Part shown: one piece after another, positions 21,761 to 63,440 of the stretch
Numbering within the stretch: the stretch's first letter is position 1
Layout of the letters: each line of letters begins with the position of its first letter
From: an uncultured Acidobacteriota bacterium
Lineage (GTDB): Bacteria > Acidobacteriota > Thermoanaerobaculia > UBA5066 > DATFVB01
NCBI GenBank assembly: GCA_963813155.1
Contig: CAWEYG010000001.1
Coordinates: forward strand, 448,001-512,000
Direction of reading: 5' to 3'
DNA: 64,000 bases
Position numbers and translations under genes: made by a program
Notes under the pieces: model-generated
Databases searched by the model: none
What the model was told of the DNA's origin: nothing
Seen by the model: the letters and a program-made list of their open reading frames with translations, nothing else

Positions 21761-22165
21761 CAGGGCCTCCCTCGGCCCAATGCGAGCCCAGCCCCAGCGC
21801 CGGCTCGGCAAGCGGGTCCTGTCGCGGGACTCGCTCCTCTTTTCCGCTCGCCGCTAGCCGGAGGACTTTGCTACACCCGCGTTGCGAGCGGCAAAAGGGA
21901 GTCTCGCCCCGCACCACCCGCTCTCTCTTGCGCCGGCGCGTTGGCCCCGACGCTCGCGGCCGGGGTTTTGCAGCGGCGCGCAGGCGGTTCCGAGGAGCCG
22001 AAAAGTGTGTGTGAGCTGGATGTCTTCAACTCGAAGTCTGAAAGCCCCCCTTGGTGAGAGGTTGCCGAAGTGAAGCCCGATGTTGCGAGTTCTTTTCGGC
22101 GAGCGAGGAACTGCCGAGTGCCGCTGTGGGGCTCGTGGCCGCGAGCGGGCTGAGCGAAGCCCCTA
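21761..22165 (+). repeat. Mosaic MITE-like element, copy B
   Basis: Left CAGGGCCTCCCTCGGCCC, right CGGGCTGAGCGAAGCCCCTA; modules m1, m2 and inverted m3. Confidence 0.8.
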
Positions 22166-33051: not shown

Positions 33052-33207
33052 TTCGCCGGGCGGGTGGCGCGGGGCGAGACCCCCTTTTGCCGCTCGCGAC
33101 GCAGGTGTAGCAAAGTCATTAGGCTCGCGGCGAGCGGAAAAGCGGGGCGAGTCCCGCGACAGGACCCGCCCCGGCCCCGTCCGGCCAGCGCACCCGGGTG
33201 CCCCGGG
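33052..33207 (-). repeat. Mosaic MITE-like element, copy C (reverse)
   Basis: Reverse complement of m1+m2, filling the gap between two convergent TAG stops. Confidence 0.8.
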
Positions 33208-34313: not shown

Positions 34314-34922
34314 CTACTTTTTCCGCGTGTAGACGATCTCGAGGTCCTTGAACATCTTTCCGTCGGGCCCCCCCATCCACATCTCGTAGCGCATGTGATC
34401 GCCGTCGATCATCGACATCCGGCCTTTCATGGGAGTCGGCTTGCCCGTCATGAAGTCGTCCATGTTCCCCGTCTCGGTCAGCGACCCGTCCGCGTCCCAT
34501 CCTCCGGTCATGACGAGCATGCCGGTGCCGAACGTGTCCATCCATACCGTCTGCGTCGTCTTCTTCGCGTTGTCGTATCCGGAGACCCCGAAGCCGTTGA
34601 ACGGCTGCCCCATCATCGAGCCGGAGAAAGACTGCGTCAGGTAGCGCCCGCCGAGGATCATCTTGAACTCCGCCGTGGCCATCGATTCCGACGCGGGCGC
34701 GCCGGGCGCCATCCACTGGCTCACCTTCGCCGTCCAGGATCCTTCGTTTCCAGCCATCTTCTTGTGGGCGTCGCCGGGCGTCGCGTACTTCGCCCAGGCC
34801 TCCATCATCGCTTTGTCGTCGCCGGACGCCGGGGCGGCGGGCTTCTTGTCGTCGGCCGCCGAAAAGCGCGCGAAGGACGCGCAGAGAGCCAGACCCAGGA
34901 CCGTGAGAAATCGTCGGTTCAT
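34314..34922 (-). CDS. DUF1579 family secreted protein
   Basis: TPG..H, G.W, ILGGRYL, GYDN, WMD..GT. Confidence 0.88.
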   Translation of the reverse strand: MNRRFLTVLGLALCASFARFSAADDKKPAAPASGDDKAMMEAWAKYATPGDAHKKMAGNEGSWTAKVSQWMAPGAPASESMATAEFKMILGGRYLTQSFSGSMMGQPFNGFGVSGYDNAKKTTQTVWMDTFGTGMLVMTGGWDADGSLTETGNMDDFMTGKPTPMKGRMSMIDGDHMRYEMWMGGPDGKMFKDLEIVYTRKK

Positions 34923-35088
34923 GAACTCCGTTCCTTTCTCGCCGAAGGCGAAAGAGAGATTTTGCGCGAAGTCTGCCCGATCGGCACGAGACAAATCAAG
35001 CCTTTCGCGCTCCCTGGAACGCGGGCCGGCCGCCGTCATAGAATGGCGGGCTTGACCGGACACCCGACACGATGAAAGGAGCCTCCTC

Positions 35089-37286
35089 ATGTCCAGCCGC
35101 CGGTCCGCCCTGGCCGCCTGCTTTCTTCTCCTGGTTCCGGCCTTGAGCTTCGCCACCGAATCTTCCGCGCCGGCGACGGCGGCAGCCGGGAACCCGCTGC
35201 TCGCGAAATGGACCGGCCCCTACGGCGGCGTCCCGCCGTTCGACAAGGTCAAGGTCGCCGACTTCAAGCCCGCGCTCGAGGCGGCGATGGCCGAGAACCT
35301 GGCCGAGATCGACGCGATCGCGAACAACCCGGCGACGCCGAACTTCGAGAACACGATCGCCGCCCTCGAGCGCGCCGGAAAGCCGTTCGAGCGCGTCTCG
35401 ACGATCTACGGCATCTTCCGCTCGACGATGAGCTCGGACGACTTCCAGACGGTCGAGCGGAGATGGCGCCGAAGCTCGCGGCCTTCGACGACCAGATCGT
35501 CCAGAACGAGAAGCTCTTCGCGCGCATCAGCGCGGTCTACGACGCCCGCGAATCGAGCGGGCTCACGCCCGAGCAGAAGCGGCTCGTCTGGCTCGACTAC
35601 ACGCAGCTTCGTCCGCGCCGGCGCGAAGCTCGAGCGGCGCGGCGAAGAAGCGCGTGGCGGAGATCAACCAGCGCCTCGCGACGCTCTTCACGAAGTTCAG
35701 CCAGAACGTGCTCGCCGACGAGAAAGACTACGTCGCTCTTCCTCGACAGGGAGGCCGACCTCGCCGGCCTGCCCGAGTCCGTCGCGGGCCGGCGCGGCCG
35801 CCGCCGCCGAGACGCGCGGGCACAAGGGCAAGTGGGCGATCCTGAACACGCGCTCCAGCATGGAGCCGTTCCTGACGTACTCCGACCGCCGCGACCTGCG
35901 CGAGAAGGTCTGGCGGACCTTCTACAACCGCGGCGACAACGGCGACGCGCACGACAACAACACGATCATCACGGAGATCCTGAAGCTGCGCGCCGAGCGG
36001 GCCAAGCTGCTCGGCTACGCGACCCACGCCCACTGGCGGCTCGAGAACAGCATGGCGAAGACGCCCGAGCGCGCGATGGAGCTGATGGAGGCGGTCTGGA
36101 AGCCCGCGGTCGCGCGCGTCCACGAGGAGGTCGCCGACATGCAGGCGATCGCCGACGCAGCGGCGCGAAGGCGGCGCGAAGATCACGATCGAGCCCTGGG
36201 ACTACCGCTACTACGCCGAGAAGGTCCGCAAGGCGAAGTACGACCTCGACCAGAACGAGGTCAAGCCGTACCTGCAGCTCGAGAAGCTGCGCGAGGCGAT
36301 GTTCTGGGTCGCGGGCGAGCTCTTCGGGCTTCGCAGTTCACGCCCGTCGACAGACGTGCCGGTCGTACCACCCGGACGTGCGCGTCTGGGAGGTGACCGA
36401 CGCCGCCGGCAAGCACGTCGGCCTCTGGTACTTCGACCCGTACGCGCGGCCCGGCAAGCAGCTCGGGCGCCTGGATGAACGCCTACCGCGCCCAGGAGCG
36501 CTTCGACGGCGAGGTCACGACGATCGTCTCCAACAACGCGAACTTCGTGAAGGGCAAGCCGGGCGAGCCGGTCCTGATCAGCTGGGACGACGCCGACGAC
36601 GCTGTTCCACGAGTTCGGCCACGCGCTGCACGGCCTCCTGTCCGACGTGACCTACCCGTCGCTGTCGGGCACGACGGTCGCGCGCGACTACGTGGAGTTC
36701 CCGTCGCAGCTCCTCGAGCACTGGCTCGCGACGCCCGAGGTGCTGAACCGCTTCGCGCTGCAACGTACCAGACGGGCAAGCCGATCCCGAAGGAGCTCGT
36801 GGAGAAGATCGAGAAGGCGTCGACGTTCAACCAGGGCTTCGCGACCGTCGAGTACCTGTCGACGGCGCTCGTCGACATGAAGCTGCACCTCGCCGGCGAC
36901 GCCGACAAGACGATCGACCCGCACGCGTTCGAGCGCGAGACGCTCGCCGCGCTCGGCATGCCGACGGAGATCGTCGATGCGCCACCGCACGCCGCAGTTC
37001 GCGCACATCTTCTCGAGCGACGGCTACTCGGCCGGCTACTACAGCTACCTCTGGGCCGACACGCTGTCCGCCGACGCCTTCGAGGCGTTCACCGAGGCCG
37101 GCGGCCCCTACGACAAGGCCGTCGCGCAAGCGGCTGCGCGAGAACGTCTTCTCCGTCGGCAACACGGTCGACCCGGCCGACGCTTACCGCGCGTTCCGCG
37201 GGCGCGACCCGGGAATCGCCGCGCTGATGCGCAAGCGCGGGTTTCCGGTGCCCGCAGCCGCGCCGGCCTCGGGCGGGGCTCCCTAG
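35089..37286 (+). CDS. dcp: M3 family peptidyl-dipeptidase Dcp-like, with many indels
   Basis: [49 protein letters not shown] spread over shifting frames. Confidence 0.85.
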
Positions 37287-39938: not shown

Positions 39939-40324
39939 AGGGCTTCGCTCGGCCCGCTCGGTCCAGCCCCAGCGCCGGCTCGGCAAGCGGGTCCTGTCGC
40001 GGGACTCGCCCCACTTTTCCGCTCGCTGCGTTCTAAGGCCTTTGCGACGACTCCGGCCGCGAGCGGCAAAAGGGGTCTGCCCCGCGCCACCCGCCCTTCT
40101 AGCCCGGCGCTTCAACCTCGCTCAGCTCCTCTGGCGAAGGGAGTGGCCAGGATGGAGCGGTGCGAGGCGGTCTGCGCCGAAAGGTGGTTCGAGCTGGAGG
40201 CGCAACTGGAAGGCTCCTGTTCCCTCAGCGAGCGAGGCCGAGCGAATCCCGAAGGCGCGAGCCTCTTCGAGGGAGGCGCCGAAGACCCGCGGGGTCTTGC
40301 GCTCTCGGGCCGAGCGAGCCCCTA
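39939..40324 (+). repeat. Mosaic MITE-like element, copy D
   Basis: AGGGCTTCGCTCGGCCCG ... CGGGCCGAGCGAGCCCCTA; modules m1, m2, m4. Confidence 0.82.
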
Positions 40325-59912: not shown

Positions 59913-60854
59913 ATGAAACATCCTTCCCGAGCAGCCGTGATCGCGGGATTCGCCGCGATCTACTTCGTCTGGGGCTCGACGTACCTCGCGATCAAGTTCG
60001 CGGTCGTCACGATCCCCCCGTTCCTGATGGCGGGAACGCGACACCTGGCGGCCGGAGCGATCCTCTACCTCTACGCGAGGCGCAGCGGCGCGCCGAAGCC
60101 GACCTTCGCGAACTGGAAGGCCGCCGCATGGATCGGCGCGCTGCTTCTGCTCGGCGGCAACGGCCTCGTCTCCTGGGCCGAGCAGCGCGTCGCGTCCGGC
60201 CCGGCTGCGCTCATCGTCGCGTCCGTCCCGCTGTGGATGGTCGCGTTGTCGGCCGCCGGAGACAGGCGTCGCCCCGCGCTGCCGGTGCTCGCCGGCCTCG
60301 CGCTCGGCCTCGGGGGCATCGCGCTGCTCGTGCTGCCCGCGCGCAACGGTTCCCGCGGCGGAATCGACCCGCTCGGCGCGGGCGCGCTGCTGCTGGCGGC
60401 GCTGTCCTGGTCGATCGGCTCGCTCCGGAGCCGCCGCGCCGCGCTGCCGACCTCCACCCTTCTCGCGACCGGCATGGAAGCGCTCGCGGGAGGAGCGGCC
60501 CTGTGGATCGCGGGACTCGCGGGGGGCGAGGGCGCGGACCTCCGCCTGGCCTCGATCACGGCCCGGTCGGCGATTTCCCTGGCCTACCTCATCGTCTTCG
60601 GCTCGGTCATCGGGTTCTCGGCCTACGTCTGGCTCCTCAAGGTCGCGAGCCCGGAGCGCGTCTCGACGTACGCGTTCGTCAACCCGATCGTCGCGGTTTC
60701 GATCGGCGTCGCGATCGGCGGCGAGGCGATCACGCCGCGCATCGCCGGCGCGGCCGGGGTCATCGTCGGCGCGGTCGCGCTGATCCTGCGGTTCGGGAAG
60801 GCGCGCGCCGCGAAGAGCGAAGAGCCGCCGGAGCAGGCGTGCGAGGTGGGATAG
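59913..60854 (+). CDS. EamA/DMT transporter (YedA-like)
   Basis: IY.VWGSTYLAI, YL..FGS..F.AY.WLL, YAFVNP.VA. Confidence 0.93.
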   Translation: MKHPSRAAVIAGFAAIYFVWGSTYLAIKFAVVTIPPFLMAGTRHLAAGAILYLYARRSGAPKPTFANWKAAAWIGALLLLGGNGLVSWAEQRVASGPAALIVASVPLWMVALSAAGDRRRPALPVLAGLALGLGGIALLVLPARNGSRGGIDPLGAGALLLAALSWSIGSLRSRRAALPTSTLLATGMEALAGGAALWIAGLAGGEGADLRLASITARSAISLAYLIVFGSVIGFSAYVWLLKVASPERVSTYAFVNPIVAVSIGVAIGGEAITPRIAGAAGVIVGAVALILRFGKARAAKSEEPPEQACEVG

Positions 60855-61095
60855 AAGACTCGCACGGCCGGGAGCGCGGCCAGGTCGCTGAGGCGAGTCT
60901 TCGGTGCCTCCCTCGAGGAGACGCAGCGCGCCCGGCGGTGGCATCCTGTCCGTGCGCGCTCCTCGGGCAAATTTTTTCGCGGCAACGACTTCGCTGGTTC
61001 AAGGTCGTTTTCAGCGAAAAAACATACGCTCCTCTCGGGAGGCACCTGTGACCCGCCTTACGCCCGGCTGCGAGGACTCGCCGAGCGAAGCTCTG
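60852..61095. repeat. Mosaic MITE-like element, copy G
   Basis: Inverted m4 (GAGTCTTCGGTGCCTCCCTCGA) near 60895; right end GCCGAGCGAAGCTCT. Confidence 0.6.
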
Positions 61096-61119
61096 GTACG
61101 CTATCCGCGAGGTAACGCG

Positions 61120-61698
61120 ATGACCTGGATCAAGACCATCCCCATGGCGGAGGCGGACGAAAAACTCAAGCGCGCGTGCGAAAAACAGCGCGAGTTGTAC
61201 CCCGCCGAATACGCGGAGTCGGTTCCCGGGGCCGAGATCCGGCGGGACGGCGAGATGTCGGGCGTCGTCGGAGCGCACAGCCTCATTCCCGACGCGCTCT
61301 ACCACGCGTTCGCGACGTTCGGTGTGCTGATGTCGCCCGAGCTTCCGCTGACCCGACGCCAGCACGAAATGATCACGACCGTCGTCTCGGCCGTGAATCG
61401 CTGCGTCTATTGAACGGAGTCTCACGCAGAGTTTCTGCGTCGGGTGACTCTGGACGAGGAGCTGGTCGGGGCGCTGCGCGCCGACTATCGGAAGGCCCCG
61501 ATCAACGAGCAGGATCTCGCGATGCTCGATTTCGCCGCCCAGCTGACGAAGGATTCCACGAAGATCCAGCCGCGCGACCATGACCGGCTGAGGGAAGTCG
61601 GCTTCGACGACCGCGGCATCCTGCAGATCACGCTGATCGCGTCGTGGTTCAACTACATCAACCGCGTCGCGGACGCGCTCGGAGTCGGGAGAGAGTAG
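61120..61698 (+). CDS. AhpD/CMD-like peroxidase-related protein, probable selenoprotein (CxxU)
   Basis: NRCVY-TGA-TESH continues in frame to [13 protein letters not shown]; hairpin immediately after the UGA. Confidence 0.85.
61414..61452 (+). promoter_or_regulatory. Putative bacterial SECIS
   Basis: GAGTC..ACGCAGA-GTT-TCTGCGT..GACTC; G-led loop about 17 nt after the UGA. Confidence 0.7.
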
Positions 61699-61895
61699 AG
61701 TTCGCTCGGCCCGCTCGGGCCCAGCGCCGGCTCGGCAAGCGGGTCCTGTCGCGAGACTCGCCCCACTTTTCCGCTCGCTGCGATTTGAGGACTTTGCTAC
61801 GACTCCGCGCCGCGAGCGGCAAAAGGGGGTCTTGCCCCGCGCCACCCGCCCTTCTACCGCCGGCGCATTAGCTCCGTCGCTCTCGGGCTTTCGCT
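61696..61895 (+). repeat. Mosaic MITE-like element, copy F
   Basis: TAGAGTTCGCTCGGCCCG left end overlapping the stop codon; modules m1+m2. Confidence 0.8.
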
Positions 61896-61942
61896 CAGGG
61901 GTTGGCCGCGAATGAGGCATCACTCTTGCTCTACGGGACGGC

Positions 61943-63440
61943 GTGGAAGAATTTCGTCGAATCGCCGCCCTTCTGATCGCGCTCGCGCTCCCGGCTGCGC
62001 TGGGCGCGCAGGACCCCGGCCGGGCGCCCGAAATGGAATTCGCGAGCGGGTTTGCCAACGTCTCCCTCGTCTCTGACGAGACGCCGCCTCCGCCCGTCGA
62101 TCCCAACGCGCACGGCACCGCGCCGATGCAGGGGCACGAGACGACGGCGCCGAGGCCGAAGCACTTCTTCACCGGCGTTTCGGAAATCGTCCTGCTCGAG
62201 GCGATCCCCTGGGCCTTCGATCGATACGTCGACAACGAGGACTTCTCCCGCATCTCCACGCACACCGTGAGCGAGAATTTCCACCGTGGCTTCGGGTTCG
62301 ACCGCGATCACTTCAATGTCAACCAGTCTTCGCACCCGTACCACGGCAGCCTCTTCTTCGAAGCCGGGCGATCGAACGGTTACACGTACTGGGAATCCGG
62401 TTTTTTCGCGCTCGCGGGAAGCCTCGCGTGGGAATGCTGCATGGAAAACGACCGCCCGTCCACGAACGACGTCGTGAACACGACGCTCGGCGGCATGACG
62501 CGCGGCGAGATCTCGCACCGGCTTTCGATCATGATTCTCGACAACACCGCTAGCGGGATCGAACAGATTCTTCCGAGAGCTCGGAGCGGCGATCGTCAAC
62601 CCCGTCAATGCGCTTTCGCGCCTCGTCCACGGCGACATGACGCGCGACTATCCGAACCCGGAGGAGCGCTTCCCGAACAGCTTCAGCATCGCGGCCGATA
62701 TCGGCTACCGGCACATCGAGCCGGACGCCGGACATCCGAATCAGGGGACGCTGTCGTTCTCGGCCCTGTACGGAGATCCGTTCGGCGGGGATATCCAGAA
62801 GCCTTTCGATTCGTTCTGGGTCGGGTTCGACGTGAACACTCCGGGCGGCACCTCCATTTCCCGCATCGAGGAGCGCGGCATCCTGAAAGGCTGGGAGCTG
62901 ACCGACCCTTCCGACTCCGCGCGCCACATCTTCGGCTTCGCTCAGGAATATGAGTACCTGAACAACGAATCCCAGGTCGTCGGCGCCCAGATGTTTTCGG
63001 CCGGCCTGCTCTCGCGCTACAAGATCGGCAAGCTCGCGGCGGCGACCGATTTCAGCCTGCTCGCGATTCCGCTCGCGGGAATCCGAACGACCGACTTCGA
63101 GAATCCCGAGACGGGCCGCAACTACGATTACGCGCCGGGGGGCGGCGTCCGGGCGGCCGTGCGGCTCTTCGGAGGCGCGCGCGAGCTCCTCGCGGTGGGT
63201 TACGGCGTCGCCTGGGCTCACACGGTCAACGGAGTTTCGAAGAACAACACGCTGCAGTTTTTTCGCGCGACGGCGCGGATCCCGATCGCGGGGCCGCTCG
63301 GCGTCGGCGGAGGGTACTGGTGGTACAGCCGGCAGACGACCTATGCCGGCTTCGCCGAACCGCGGAAAACGCAGTCGGAATGGAGAGCCTTCCTGAATCT
63401 CGCGTTCGGCGGCTCGGACCTTCGCAAGACCGGAAACTGA
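61943..63440 (+). CDS. DUF3943 family outer-membrane protein, indel near 62570
   Basis: D.D.F.VNQ..HPYHG, R.NG...WES, WE...E...PS.ND..NT; beta-barrel-like C-terminal half. Confidence 0.8.

Follow-up and report, generated by a model that had tools for sequence, protein, structure and literature searches.

Selenoproteins of the AhpD-like CxxU family have been in print since 2005. The family was listed as "AhpD-like protein" in the Sargasso Sea study (PMC1088965) and as "AhpD-like 1" in the GOS study (PMC2398784), a table in a 2026 review gives it as "AhpD-like protein, TIGR01926, CxxU" (PMC13188914), and it can be browsed in BSepDB (PMC13326102). Selenoproteins from Acidobacteria were reported in 2006. 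For AhpD from Mycobacterium tuberculosis, a proton relay comprising Glu118, Cys130, His132, Cys133, and His137 has been described, with Glu36, Cys48, Tyr50, Cys51, and His55 as the counterparts in PA0269 (PMC3141380). An oxidative-stress role that depends on the CxxC cysteines is described for DR1765, an AhpD-like protein from Deinococcus radiodurans whose mutant is sensitive to H2O2 (PMC8945050). The bacterial SECIS consensus model of bSECISearch, as set out in a figure legend, comprises a loop of 3-9 nt with G in position 1 or 2, usually followed by G or U, a stem of 4-16 bp, a UGA-loop spacing of 16-37 nt, and a minimum free energy (MFE) of at most -7.5 kcal/mol (PMC13188914, Fig. 2 legend).

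The locus examined here lies in a 64,000-nt stretch of DNA from an uncultured Acidobacteriota bacterium, referred to below as the window. It is best explained as one intact gene whose product is an AhpD-like thiol/selenol oxidoreductase of 192 residues; the UGA at its codon 98 is very probably decoded as selenocysteine (Sec). The gene and its surroundings comprise the following features:

59913-60854: upstream ORF for what we take, from our own reading of the sequence, to be an EamA-like transporter.
61109-61113, plus strand: Shine-Dalgarno-like GAGGT, read from the sequence, with 7 nt separating GAGG from the ATG.
61120-61698, plus strand: AhpD-like coding sequence of 192 codons and a TAG stop, with U98; TIGR01926/COG2128, CMD superfamily.
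61411-61413, plus strand: UGA codon 98, putatively read as selenocysteine, as the second redox residue of the C-x-x-C/U motif (C95-V-Y-U98-T-E-S-H102).
61417-61450, plus strand: extended hairpin, formed in this sequence only, in which a lower stem of GAGUC (61417-61421) and GACUC (61446-61450) flanks the core.
61424-61440, plus strand: predicted SECIS core hairpin of 17 nt, with a 7-bp stem of ACGCAGA (61424-61430) and UCUGCGU (61434-61440) and a GUU triloop (61431-61433).
61943-62953: DUF3943 protein.

A single reading frame runs from the ATG at 61120 to the TAG at 61696-61698, and its sole in-frame break is the TGA of codon 98. The ORF list compiled with translation table 11 contains two entries here, 60904-61413 and 61444-61698, both of which share the frame of 61120. 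Translation of the TGA as U yields a 192-residue protein with U98 embedded in NRCVYUTESH. The two halves have nearly the same G+C content at third codon positions (GC3; 0.856 and 0.862), whereas the two alternative frames give 0.65 and 0.42. The sequence-only reading had proposed that the two listed ORFs are one frame and that the product is a 192-aa read-through protein with Sec at codon 98. The coordinates and the read-through translation bear out the former, and the frame, the conserved TGA, and the Sec machinery of the genome speak for the latter with its putative Sec. Around the gene, a promoter scan returned no promoter-like sites, and a terminator scan returned two terminator-like sites, both on the minus strand, a number that shuffled sequences also reach. 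No inverted repeats were found in 61690-61900 with a seed of 9.

Profile searches place the protein in a family of peroxidase-related enzymes. Its best-supported assignment is to TIGR01926, "peroxidase-related enzyme" (NCBIfam), with 118.1 bits against a cut-off of 81.8 (E = 3.7e-34) and residues 47-189 aligned to profile positions 30-173 of 178. The Pfam CMD domain (PF02627) matches residues 68-118 with 34.9 bits, above the gathering threshold of 23. These two scores show that the earlier assignment to AhpD/CMD-type proteins with a CxxU motif was right. Two other profiles fell short of their cut-offs. NF041238, the AhpD-related CFYUT (seleno)protein, gave 63.1 bits against 175, with only the C-terminal part of its 357-position profile matched. 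TIGR00777, which represents true AhpD of the M. tuberculosis type, gave 21.1 bits against 191.95, and filing the protein as AhpD proper was rejected on this score. Because the protein fails the TIGR00777 cut-off, reduction of AhpC can be proposed for it by analogy and not by membership. Among solved structures, the PDB entries 2pfx (E = 1.6e-24), 2oyo, 3c1l, 2prr, and 6k40 match residues from about 46 to 189, with E values from 1.6e-24 to 1.3e-18. In both of the alignments shown (2pfx and 2oyo), the C-x-x-C falls on C95/U98, with Cys in the U column. Such matches, at E = 1e-24, already place the predicted fold.

The predicted catalytic register of this fold is retained in sequence: at least 83 of 84 sequences have the same residues at E83, C95, Y97, U98, and H102. 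In its redox center the protein is predicted to work like AhpD, and it is not an AhpD ortholog. Sec98 would replace the second Cys of the AhpD C-x-x-C-x-x-x-H center, with a selenenylsulfide/selenol-thiol cycle as the likely chemistry. The enzyme would then reduce either a peroxiredoxin-type partner or peroxides directly and may thereby serve in defense against oxidative stress.

We examined the assembly containing this gene (23 contigs, 90.8% complete, 3.76% contamination) for components of Sec synthesis and decoding. Homologs of selA (456.5 bits), selB (351.2 bits), and selD (331.9 bits) and a tRNA-Sec (71.3 bits) all scored above their cut-offs and lie on three contigs of the binned assembly other than the one that bears the gene; the selB homolog occupies 34642-36489 of its contig. 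ARAGORN calls the tRNA as tRNA-SeC with anticodon UCA; its acceptor and T stems comprise 8 and 5 bp (8/5), and it has G73 and an encoded CCA. By frame scan, selD has one TGA of its own, at SAG-U-ACK, and a second selenoprotein gene, the Grx-like NF041114, has two. At each of these three other UGA sites, G-U occurs in an apical loop starting 20-24 nt past the U of the UGA: GUU at +21-23 for selD, GUGC at +23-26 for the first Grx-like UGA, and GUU at +24-26 for the second. A GUU apical loop is found after two of the three, namely, the selD site and the second Grx-like site. The sequence-only reading had named selA, selB, selD, and tRNA-Sec as the genes to look for and had suggested Sec use in this lineage; all four were present, and the further UGA-containing genes lend the suggestion additional support. 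RF2 is also encoded in the assembly (488.1 bits), and therefore UGA is still a stop codon in this organism.

With this gene set in hand, a different decoding of the UGA can be weighed. A tRNA-Cys(UCA) of the selC* type might insert Cys at this codon, or a suppressor or a reassigned code might give Trp or some other residue. We consider any of these highly unlikely. Such selC* tRNAs do decode UGA as Cys in some bacteria, and tRNA-Sec-like allo-tRNAs are described from Acidobacteria (PMC5389517). However, the same source describes the selC* species as having U73 and an 8/4 structure (PMC5389517), whereas the UCA tRNA of this genome has G73 and is 8/5, and selA and selD are needed only for Sec synthesis. 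The presence of RF2, together with the finding that TGA ends 55 of the 86 long stop-to-stop frames in the window, indicates that the code is not reassigned. Moreover, Sec decoding needs a site-specific hairpin and general suppression does not. Trp does appear at the Sec column: among the 120 database proteins listed, 63 have C and 54 have W. As judged from the proteins alone, the W most likely arose where gene callers translated the TGA of short contigs as Trp. Along with the split in the table-11 list, this agrees with the earlier claim that standard callers would miss the gene.

The TGA is conserved far beyond this genome. Across 188 unique orthologous genes (duplicates removed), codon 98 is TGA in 177 and TGC in 11. 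All eight full-length orthologs found in the genomes of 60 relatives have one TGA at the same column, and all nine orthologs at genus-to-order distance maintain one frame with an MTWI start and a GVGR end. TGA was present in 79 of 80 genome loci by a search pattern that missed one locus, later counted by a looser pattern, and at 26 of 27 places in a phylum sample of 301 genomes. These results agree with the prior expectation that homologs would have Cys or TGA at codon 98 and both halves in one frame. The named orthologs come mostly from Acidobacteriota (Pyrinomonadaceae, Blastocatellia), with some from Gemmatimonadota metagenome-assembled genomes.

Such conservation bears on whether the TGA could instead be a true stop, leaving either a pseudogene or two small genes, i.e., an N-terminal fragment of 97 residues followed by an ORF of 84 residues from the GTG at 61444. 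The table-11 list gives exactly these two ORFs, and RF2 is present, so that UGA does terminate in this organism. Nevertheless, we regard a true stop as very remote. In 177 unique genes the stop has stayed at one column although the remaining sequence has drifted to about 56-86% identity, which a pseudogene would not show. The dN/dS values are equally low for codons 1-97 (0.167) and codons 99-192 (0.162; n = 83), indicating equal purifying selection on both halves, and the halves are equal in GC3 as well. The ten codons between the TGA and the GTG at 61444 are conserved and include the catalytic His102, and a split would cut the C-x-x-C-x-x-x-H center in two. Homologs of the Cys form, by comparison, are single proteins of about 188 residues. 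An erroneous TGA in place of a true TGC or TGT, introduced by sequencing or assembly (the refutation that the sequence-only reading had envisaged), has a practically negligible probability, as nothing was found in its favor, contigs from three soil metagenome studies span the site (61369-61515, 61082-61626, and 61353-61518, the first possibly from the source sample and then not independent) with no other letter at 61411-61413, and TGA occurs in 176 other unique genes from independent assemblies.

A single gene with Sec at codon 98 would also call for a SECIS element, and the hairpin that begins 10 nt past the UGA fits this role. All four published constraints on bacterial SECIS elements agree with its dimensions: a 3-nt loop with G as the first base and U as the next, a 7-bp stem, a spacing of 17 nt (61414-61430) between the UGA and the loop, and an MFE of -8.2 kcal/mol (PMC13188914, Fig. 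2 legend). The 17-nt core, which lies within the codons for H102-A-E-F-L-R107, has a z of -4.46, and 1 of 200 shuffles did as well. The fold of a wider 66-nt stretch is unexceptional in GC-rich DNA (z = -1.28; 19 of 200 shuffles equal or better). An Rfam scan of 60900-61900 with E values up to 10 returned no RNA family at the hairpin, the sole match being a chance miRNA (17.2 bits versus 142).

The conservation of the core is most apparent when Sec and Cys forms are compared. All seven upper-stem pairs can form in 88 of 88 sequences. In the larger set, all 177 Sec forms have the loop GTT and at least six of the seven pairs, and one terminal pair is lost without compensation in 13 of them. The Cys forms, in contrast, can form only 2-6 stem pairs. 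An exact 18-nt core (61423-61440) is found in 160 of the 177 Sec forms and in none of the 11 Cys forms. Except for one A-to-G change, the six stem codons show no third-position variation, whereas flanking four-fold sites show all four bases. In the nine closest genes, all six stem codons stay the same, versus 22 of 95 invariant-residue columns elsewhere. The A/T-ending codons TTT, CGT, and GCA are kept in the Sec forms although the gene has a GC3 of 85%. Cys forms also have the E-F-L-R peptide, but encode it with TTC, CGC, and other codons. Because EFLRR as a peptide is conserved in Cys forms too, residue conservation there reflects protein constraint, and codon choice alone speaks for the RNA. 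The stem varies so little that no compensatory double change is available as proof of pairing; the sole change that supports it is the A-to-G substitution, which produces a G.U pair. Taken together, the same-column TGA and the near-identical core represent strong comparative evidence beyond chance.

The extended hairpin fared differently. Its 38-nt fold reaches -17.8 kcal/mol (z = -2.83), and the lower stem had been considered part of the element. All five lower-stem pairs form in 4 of 88 orthologs, however, and across these 88 sequences 260 of 440 cells are paired, against a shuffle mean of 257.7, with 231 of 2,000 shuffles reaching the observed value. The lower stem was therefore rejected as a conserved SECIS part, its pairing being no better than in shuffles. 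Local codons probably produced it by chance, and it may add stability without being a defining part. Of the stem-loop in the sequence-only reading, the upper stem, the GUU loop, and the 17-nt spacing hold, and the lower stem forms here but is not conserved.

During translation, the 17-nt core would be bound by SelB carrying Sec-tRNA(Sec), and SelB, competing with RF2, would deliver Sec to the UGA. What these steps require could come from this genome, namely, selD, selA, selB, and the 8/5 tRNA-Sec with G73. A broader possibility, which we put forward tentatively and consider rather doubtful, is that the 17-nt GUU-triloop hairpin acts beyond one gene's SECIS as a lineage-wide, sequence-specific SelB recognition element. 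The idea stems from a core that hardly differs among 177 genes, whose named representatives belong to at least two phyla, and from the recurrence of the GUU loop at other UGA sites of the genome. If SelB of soil Acidobacteriota and Gemmatimonadota does read such a minimal element, their whole selenoproteomes could be listed with a simple pattern, and a very small portable tag for Sec insertion could be made from the element. It is also possible that the Sec form and its SECIS spread jointly by horizontal transfer, which would leave such near-identical cores in different phyla.

Gene neighborhoods were compared among orthologous loci. The EamA-like ORF, the DUF3943 gene, and the next ORF adjoin the ortholog in 1 of 88 loci, the exception being from the same genus. 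All-against-all clustering of flanking ORFs recovered the gene's own halves and spurious antisense ORFs of high R, E, D, and G content, along with a cluster of outer-membrane-like proteins in the flanks of 26 of 89 loci. Neither neighbor recurrence nor flank clustering identified an operon partner in these 88-89 loci. One RNA run contributed nine contig pieces, eight of which lie only partly on the stretch; one 34-nt piece falls at 61407-61440, and the others fall within 61576-61689, each with other letters. The pieces look like conserved parts of relatives' genes. They were rejected as evidence for transcription of this gene.

The main value of this analysis lies in annotation: split ORFs, or a probable false Trp such as that in 54 of the 120 listed proteins, conceal the probable catalytic Sec. 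On genomic evidence, the analysis also confirms that a soil bacterium uses selenium in proteins, with at least three selenoprotein genes seen (AhpD-like, selD, and Grx-like). The predominance of the Sec form over the Cys form in the sampled phylum bears on the selenium demand of soil microbes. With both the family and the CxxU motif in print since 2005, the locus opens no new question.

Comparison with known systems places the protein and its hairpin within described types. M. tuberculosis AhpD shares the CMD/AhpD fold family, and the five relay positions described for it have the same spacing here (Glu-12-Cys-x-[His/Tyr]-Cys-3-His). Where that enzyme has His132 and Cys133, the present protein has Tyr97, as in Tyr50 of PA0269, and the putative Sec98 (PMC3141380). 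M. tuberculosis AhpD reduces AhpC and is in turn reduced by a lipoamide protein, whereas the present gene has no AhpC partner gene nearby. The structurally characterized relatives 2pfx, 2oyo, 3c1l, and 2prr ("uncharacterized peroxidase-related proteins") and 6k40 (chain named AhpD) are similar in sequence but have Cys instead of Sec; 6k40 is presumably DR1765. The loop of the E. coli fdhF element is larger, and that element also contains a bulged U. Relative to the bacterial SECIS model in the figure legend, the present hairpin is at the small end of the range, a triloop without a conserved lower helix or bulge (PMC13188914). The AhpD-like selenoprotein family (TIGR01926/COG2128), as published, has in common with this gene the same profile above cut-off, the same CxxU with Sec at the second Cys position, Cys homologs, and a SECIS directly after the UGA. 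The gene is thus a further member of an already catalogued selenoprotein family rather than hidden knowledge. It shows no difference of kind from the described members and represents a soil clade with an unusually uniform 17-nt GUU hairpin.

The gene under study lies in one frame on the forward strand, with the stems and loop below placed by sequence and folding and the remaining features by sequence:

61109-61113, forward strand, GAGGT 5' of the start codon
61120, forward strand, ATG start
61411-61413, forward strand, in-frame TGA
61417-61421 and 61446-61450, forward strand, lower stem GAGUC / GACUC
61424-61430 and 61434-61440, forward strand, upper stem ACGCAGA / UCUGCGU
61431-61433, forward strand, loop GUU
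61696-61698, forward strand, TAG stop

As the sequence-only reading had noted, the table-11 ORF list breaks the locus into 60904..61413 and 61444..61698, both sharing the frame of 61120. Reading the TGA as U (Sec) gives a product of 192 residues with U98 within N-R-C-V-Y-U-T-E-S-H, and GC3 is 0.856 in the N half of the gene and 0.862 in the C half. Relatives of solved structure are 2pfx (E = 1.6e-24), 2oyo, 3c1l, 2prr, and 6k40; the C-x-x-C of 2pfx and 2oyo, the two printed alignments, falls on C95/U98, which bears out the proposal that the TGA stands in the C-x-x-C register.

Across the genomes of 60 relatives and the window's own assembly, eight other full-length orthologues (70-86% identity) each carry exactly one TGA, always at the same column. 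TGA also occupies this column at 79 of 80 loci on named genome contigs, mostly MAGs labeled Pyrinomonadaceae, Blastocatellia, or Acidobacteriota, with a few Gemmatimonadota; locus L081, which fell outside the search pattern behind this count, was later included with a looser one. A sample of 301 genomes from the window's phylum gave matches at E <= 1e-40 in 26 genomes, at 27 places (L136-L162), 26 of them with a single TGA; the exception, L137, has no TGA and is a Cys form. The selenoprotein form is the rule, not the exception, in this sample. Loci from a metagenome search with a Cys-form protein as query, pooled with the phylum loci, came to 107 (94 TGA, 11 TGC, and 2 without the motif). With all sets pooled, the motif is present in 194 of 196 loci, representing 188 unique genes, and these divide into 177 with TGA and 11 with TGC, the Sec or Cys anticipated at codon 98 of homologues. 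The counts take in genomes G002 (L023) and G210 (L144, L162), and the conclusions are the same without them.

Read-through of the UGA as Cys or Trp is unlikely. Of the 120 nearest database proteins (P0002-P0121), 54 do show Trp at the Sec column, and one shows Leu; however, the Trp most likely stems from gene prediction on short metagenome contigs in which TGA was translated as Trp. If gene calling is the cause, the resulting public protein records contain an incorrect active-site Trp. The window's own assembly (3.81 Mb, 23 contigs, 90.8% complete, 3.76% contamination) encodes selA (456.5 bits), selB (351.2 bits), selD (331.9 bits), one tRNA-Sec with anticodon UCA (71.3 bits), RF2 (488.1 bits), and a Grx-like selenoprotein gene, NF041114, with two TGA codons (104.9 bits). 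The selD gene (L001) is itself a selenoprotein gene:

G000:C3:921620-922561 (G000 being the window's own assembly), reverse strand, selD with one in-frame TGA at S-A-G-U-A-C-K

The presence of selA, selB, selD, and tRNA-Sec agrees with the Sec use previously implied for this lineage. The tRNA-Sec combines an acceptor stem of 8 bp with a T stem of 5 bp, carries G at the discriminator position, and has its CCA encoded; its discriminator G and 8/5 structure differ from the U73 and 8/4 structure of selC* tRNA-Cys(UCA), which reads UGA as Cys, as described in PMC5389517. These identity elements, selA with selD, and RF2 argue against decoding as Cys or Trp. A pseudogene or split gene is excluded: the TGA is fixed across orthologues, the catalytic His follows the TGA and precedes the start of the second ORF, and selection is equal on both halves, with a median dN/dS against the window's gene of 0.167 for codons 1-97 and 0.162 for codons 99-192 (n=83, from 88 sequences in hand with 4 left out because their start could not be placed). 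Sequencing error is also excluded, as contigs from three soil studies (one may be the source sample) span the codon with no other letter listed at 61411-61413 and 176 other unique genes have TGA there.

The two-part stem-loop described from the sequence alone stands in its upper part: the upper stem and GUU loop are conserved, and the UGA-to-loop spacing is 17 nt. The lower stem, although present here, is not conserved: 4 of the 88 sequences form all five pairs, and shuffled partners do as well. Folding energy by itself is weak evidence in DNA of 66.6% GC (z = -1.28 for the 66-nt stretch; -8.2 kcal/mol and z = -4.46 for the 17-nt core alone). Counting the U of UGA as +1, positions +13 to +30 are invariant in the first 88 Sec-form sequences, save one A-to-G change that preserves a G.U pair, and all four bases occur at the four-fold sites that immediately flank this stretch (+12, +33, +36, and +39). 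In the nine closest genes, 6 of 6 stem codons are fixed versus 22 of 95 invariant-residue columns elsewhere. The loop is GTT in all 177 unique Sec forms, the exact 18-nt core (61423-61440) is found in 160, and 7 of 7 pairs form in 164 and 6 of 7 in the other 13; no compensatory covariation was found in the stem because it hardly varies. Sec forms retain A/T-ending TTT, CGT, and GCA though the gene's GC3 is 85%. The Cys forms serve as the deciding control. The 11 Cys-form sequences, all mutually different, retain the peptide S-H-x-E-F-L-R-R, but its codons are free (TTC, CGC/CGG/CGA, CTC, and various at position 103); none has the core, and 2-6 of 7 pairs are possible. Frozen codons in Sec forms and free codons in Cys forms together point to an RNA-level constraint linked to the UGA. 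The hairpin passes all four constraints of the bacterial SECIS model as outlined in PMC13188914 (loop 3-9 nt, stem 4-16 bp, a G at loop position 1 or 2, spacing 16-37 nt, MFE <= -7.5 kcal/mol).

Single-sequence folds place G-U in an apical loop at a similar distance at the genome's other UGA sites as well: the hairpin 3' of the selD UGA has loop AGUUC with GUU at +21-23, the second Grx-like UGA is followed by a 7-bp stem and GUU loop at +24-26, and the first by a GUGC loop at +23-26. One SelB must read all SECIS elements of this genome, and the shared G-U is consistent with one recognition mode. Across the four UGA sites seen in the selenoprotein genes of this genome (L135, G000:C5:118580-118789 (+); also L001), three have GUU in the apical loop 21-26 nt past the U of UGA and the fourth has GUGC; GUU is thereby a possible SelB recognition motif specific to the lineage.

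The window's neighbor genes recur beside the orthologue in L023 (same genus) alone, with no conserved neighbor at other orthologue loci. An intergenic dispersed repeat of ~105 bp lies 3' of the gene at 61725-61830, and a search of the own genome placed other copies in the window:

near 21798-21902, repeat copy
near 33079-33169, reverse strand, repeat copy
near 39973-40075, repeat copy

The own genome holds at least 40 matches (40 of 95 candidates scored), which lie on both strands and are 84-100% identical. The repeat folds into a long imperfect hairpin (-49.2 kcal/mol, z = -1.78 only), has no match in Rfam, and resembles a REP- or MITE-like element. Summed contig depth is very high at 61729-61782 in three soil metagenomes. 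Upstream, intergenic 61027-61053 shows a local summed-depth peak in the same three soil metagenomes (61.8, 94.1, and 26.6 versus 3-15 in the next bin) and may represent a further short element, repeated or conserved. Downstream, ORF 61943-62953 (+) matches DUF3943 (PF13084, 95.9 bits) and overlaps the next forward ORF, 62637-63440, in another frame; gene boundaries are tentative here.

A FastTree phylogeny was built from 305 sequences, comprising 177 Sec genes, 11 Cys genes, 63 Cys proteins, and 54 'W' proteins scored as Sec; some of the proteins may duplicate genes of the DNA sets. The Sec/Cys state needs at least four changes on this tree, and the largest pure clades hold 106 Sec and 56 Cys tips. 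Because the root is a midpoint root, no direction of change is claimed.

The gene belongs to an already published selenoprotein family of CxxU type, and its main value is annotation correction. AhpD-like proteins (COG2128) with CXXU were described as a new selenoprotein family from the Sargasso Sea (27 sequences; PMC1088965), ranked fourth by number among the prokaryotic selenoprotein families of GOS (299 selenoproteins, 902 Cys homologues; PMC2398784), and were identified in sequenced genomes in 2006, when Acidobacteria were already credited with three selenoprotein families (PMC1794560). The table of a 2026 review has the entry "AhpD-like protein, TIGR01926, CxxU" (PMC13188914), and the family is browsable in BSepDB (PMC13326102).

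The product matches Pfam CMD at residues 68-118 (34.9 bits, cut-off 23) and NCBIfam TIGR01926, "peroxidase-related enzyme," at residues 47-189 (118.1 bits, cut-off 81.8); it does not attain the cut-offs of TIGR00777, true AhpD (21.1 versus 191.95 bits), or NF041238 (63.1 versus 175 bits). AhpD is the reductant of AhpC and is in turn reduced by lipoamide proteins. At least 83 of 84 sequences share each of the residues E83, C95, Y97, U98, and H102. Taken with the role of AhpD, the relay-like spacing of these residues suggests a selenol/thiol redox center, with Sec replacing the second Cys, that would work in peroxide defense. Their spacing is the same as in the proton-relay sets that PMC3141380 gives for M. 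tuberculosis AhpD (Glu118, Cys130, His132, Cys133, His137) and PA0269 (Glu36, Cys48, Tyr50, Cys51, His55).
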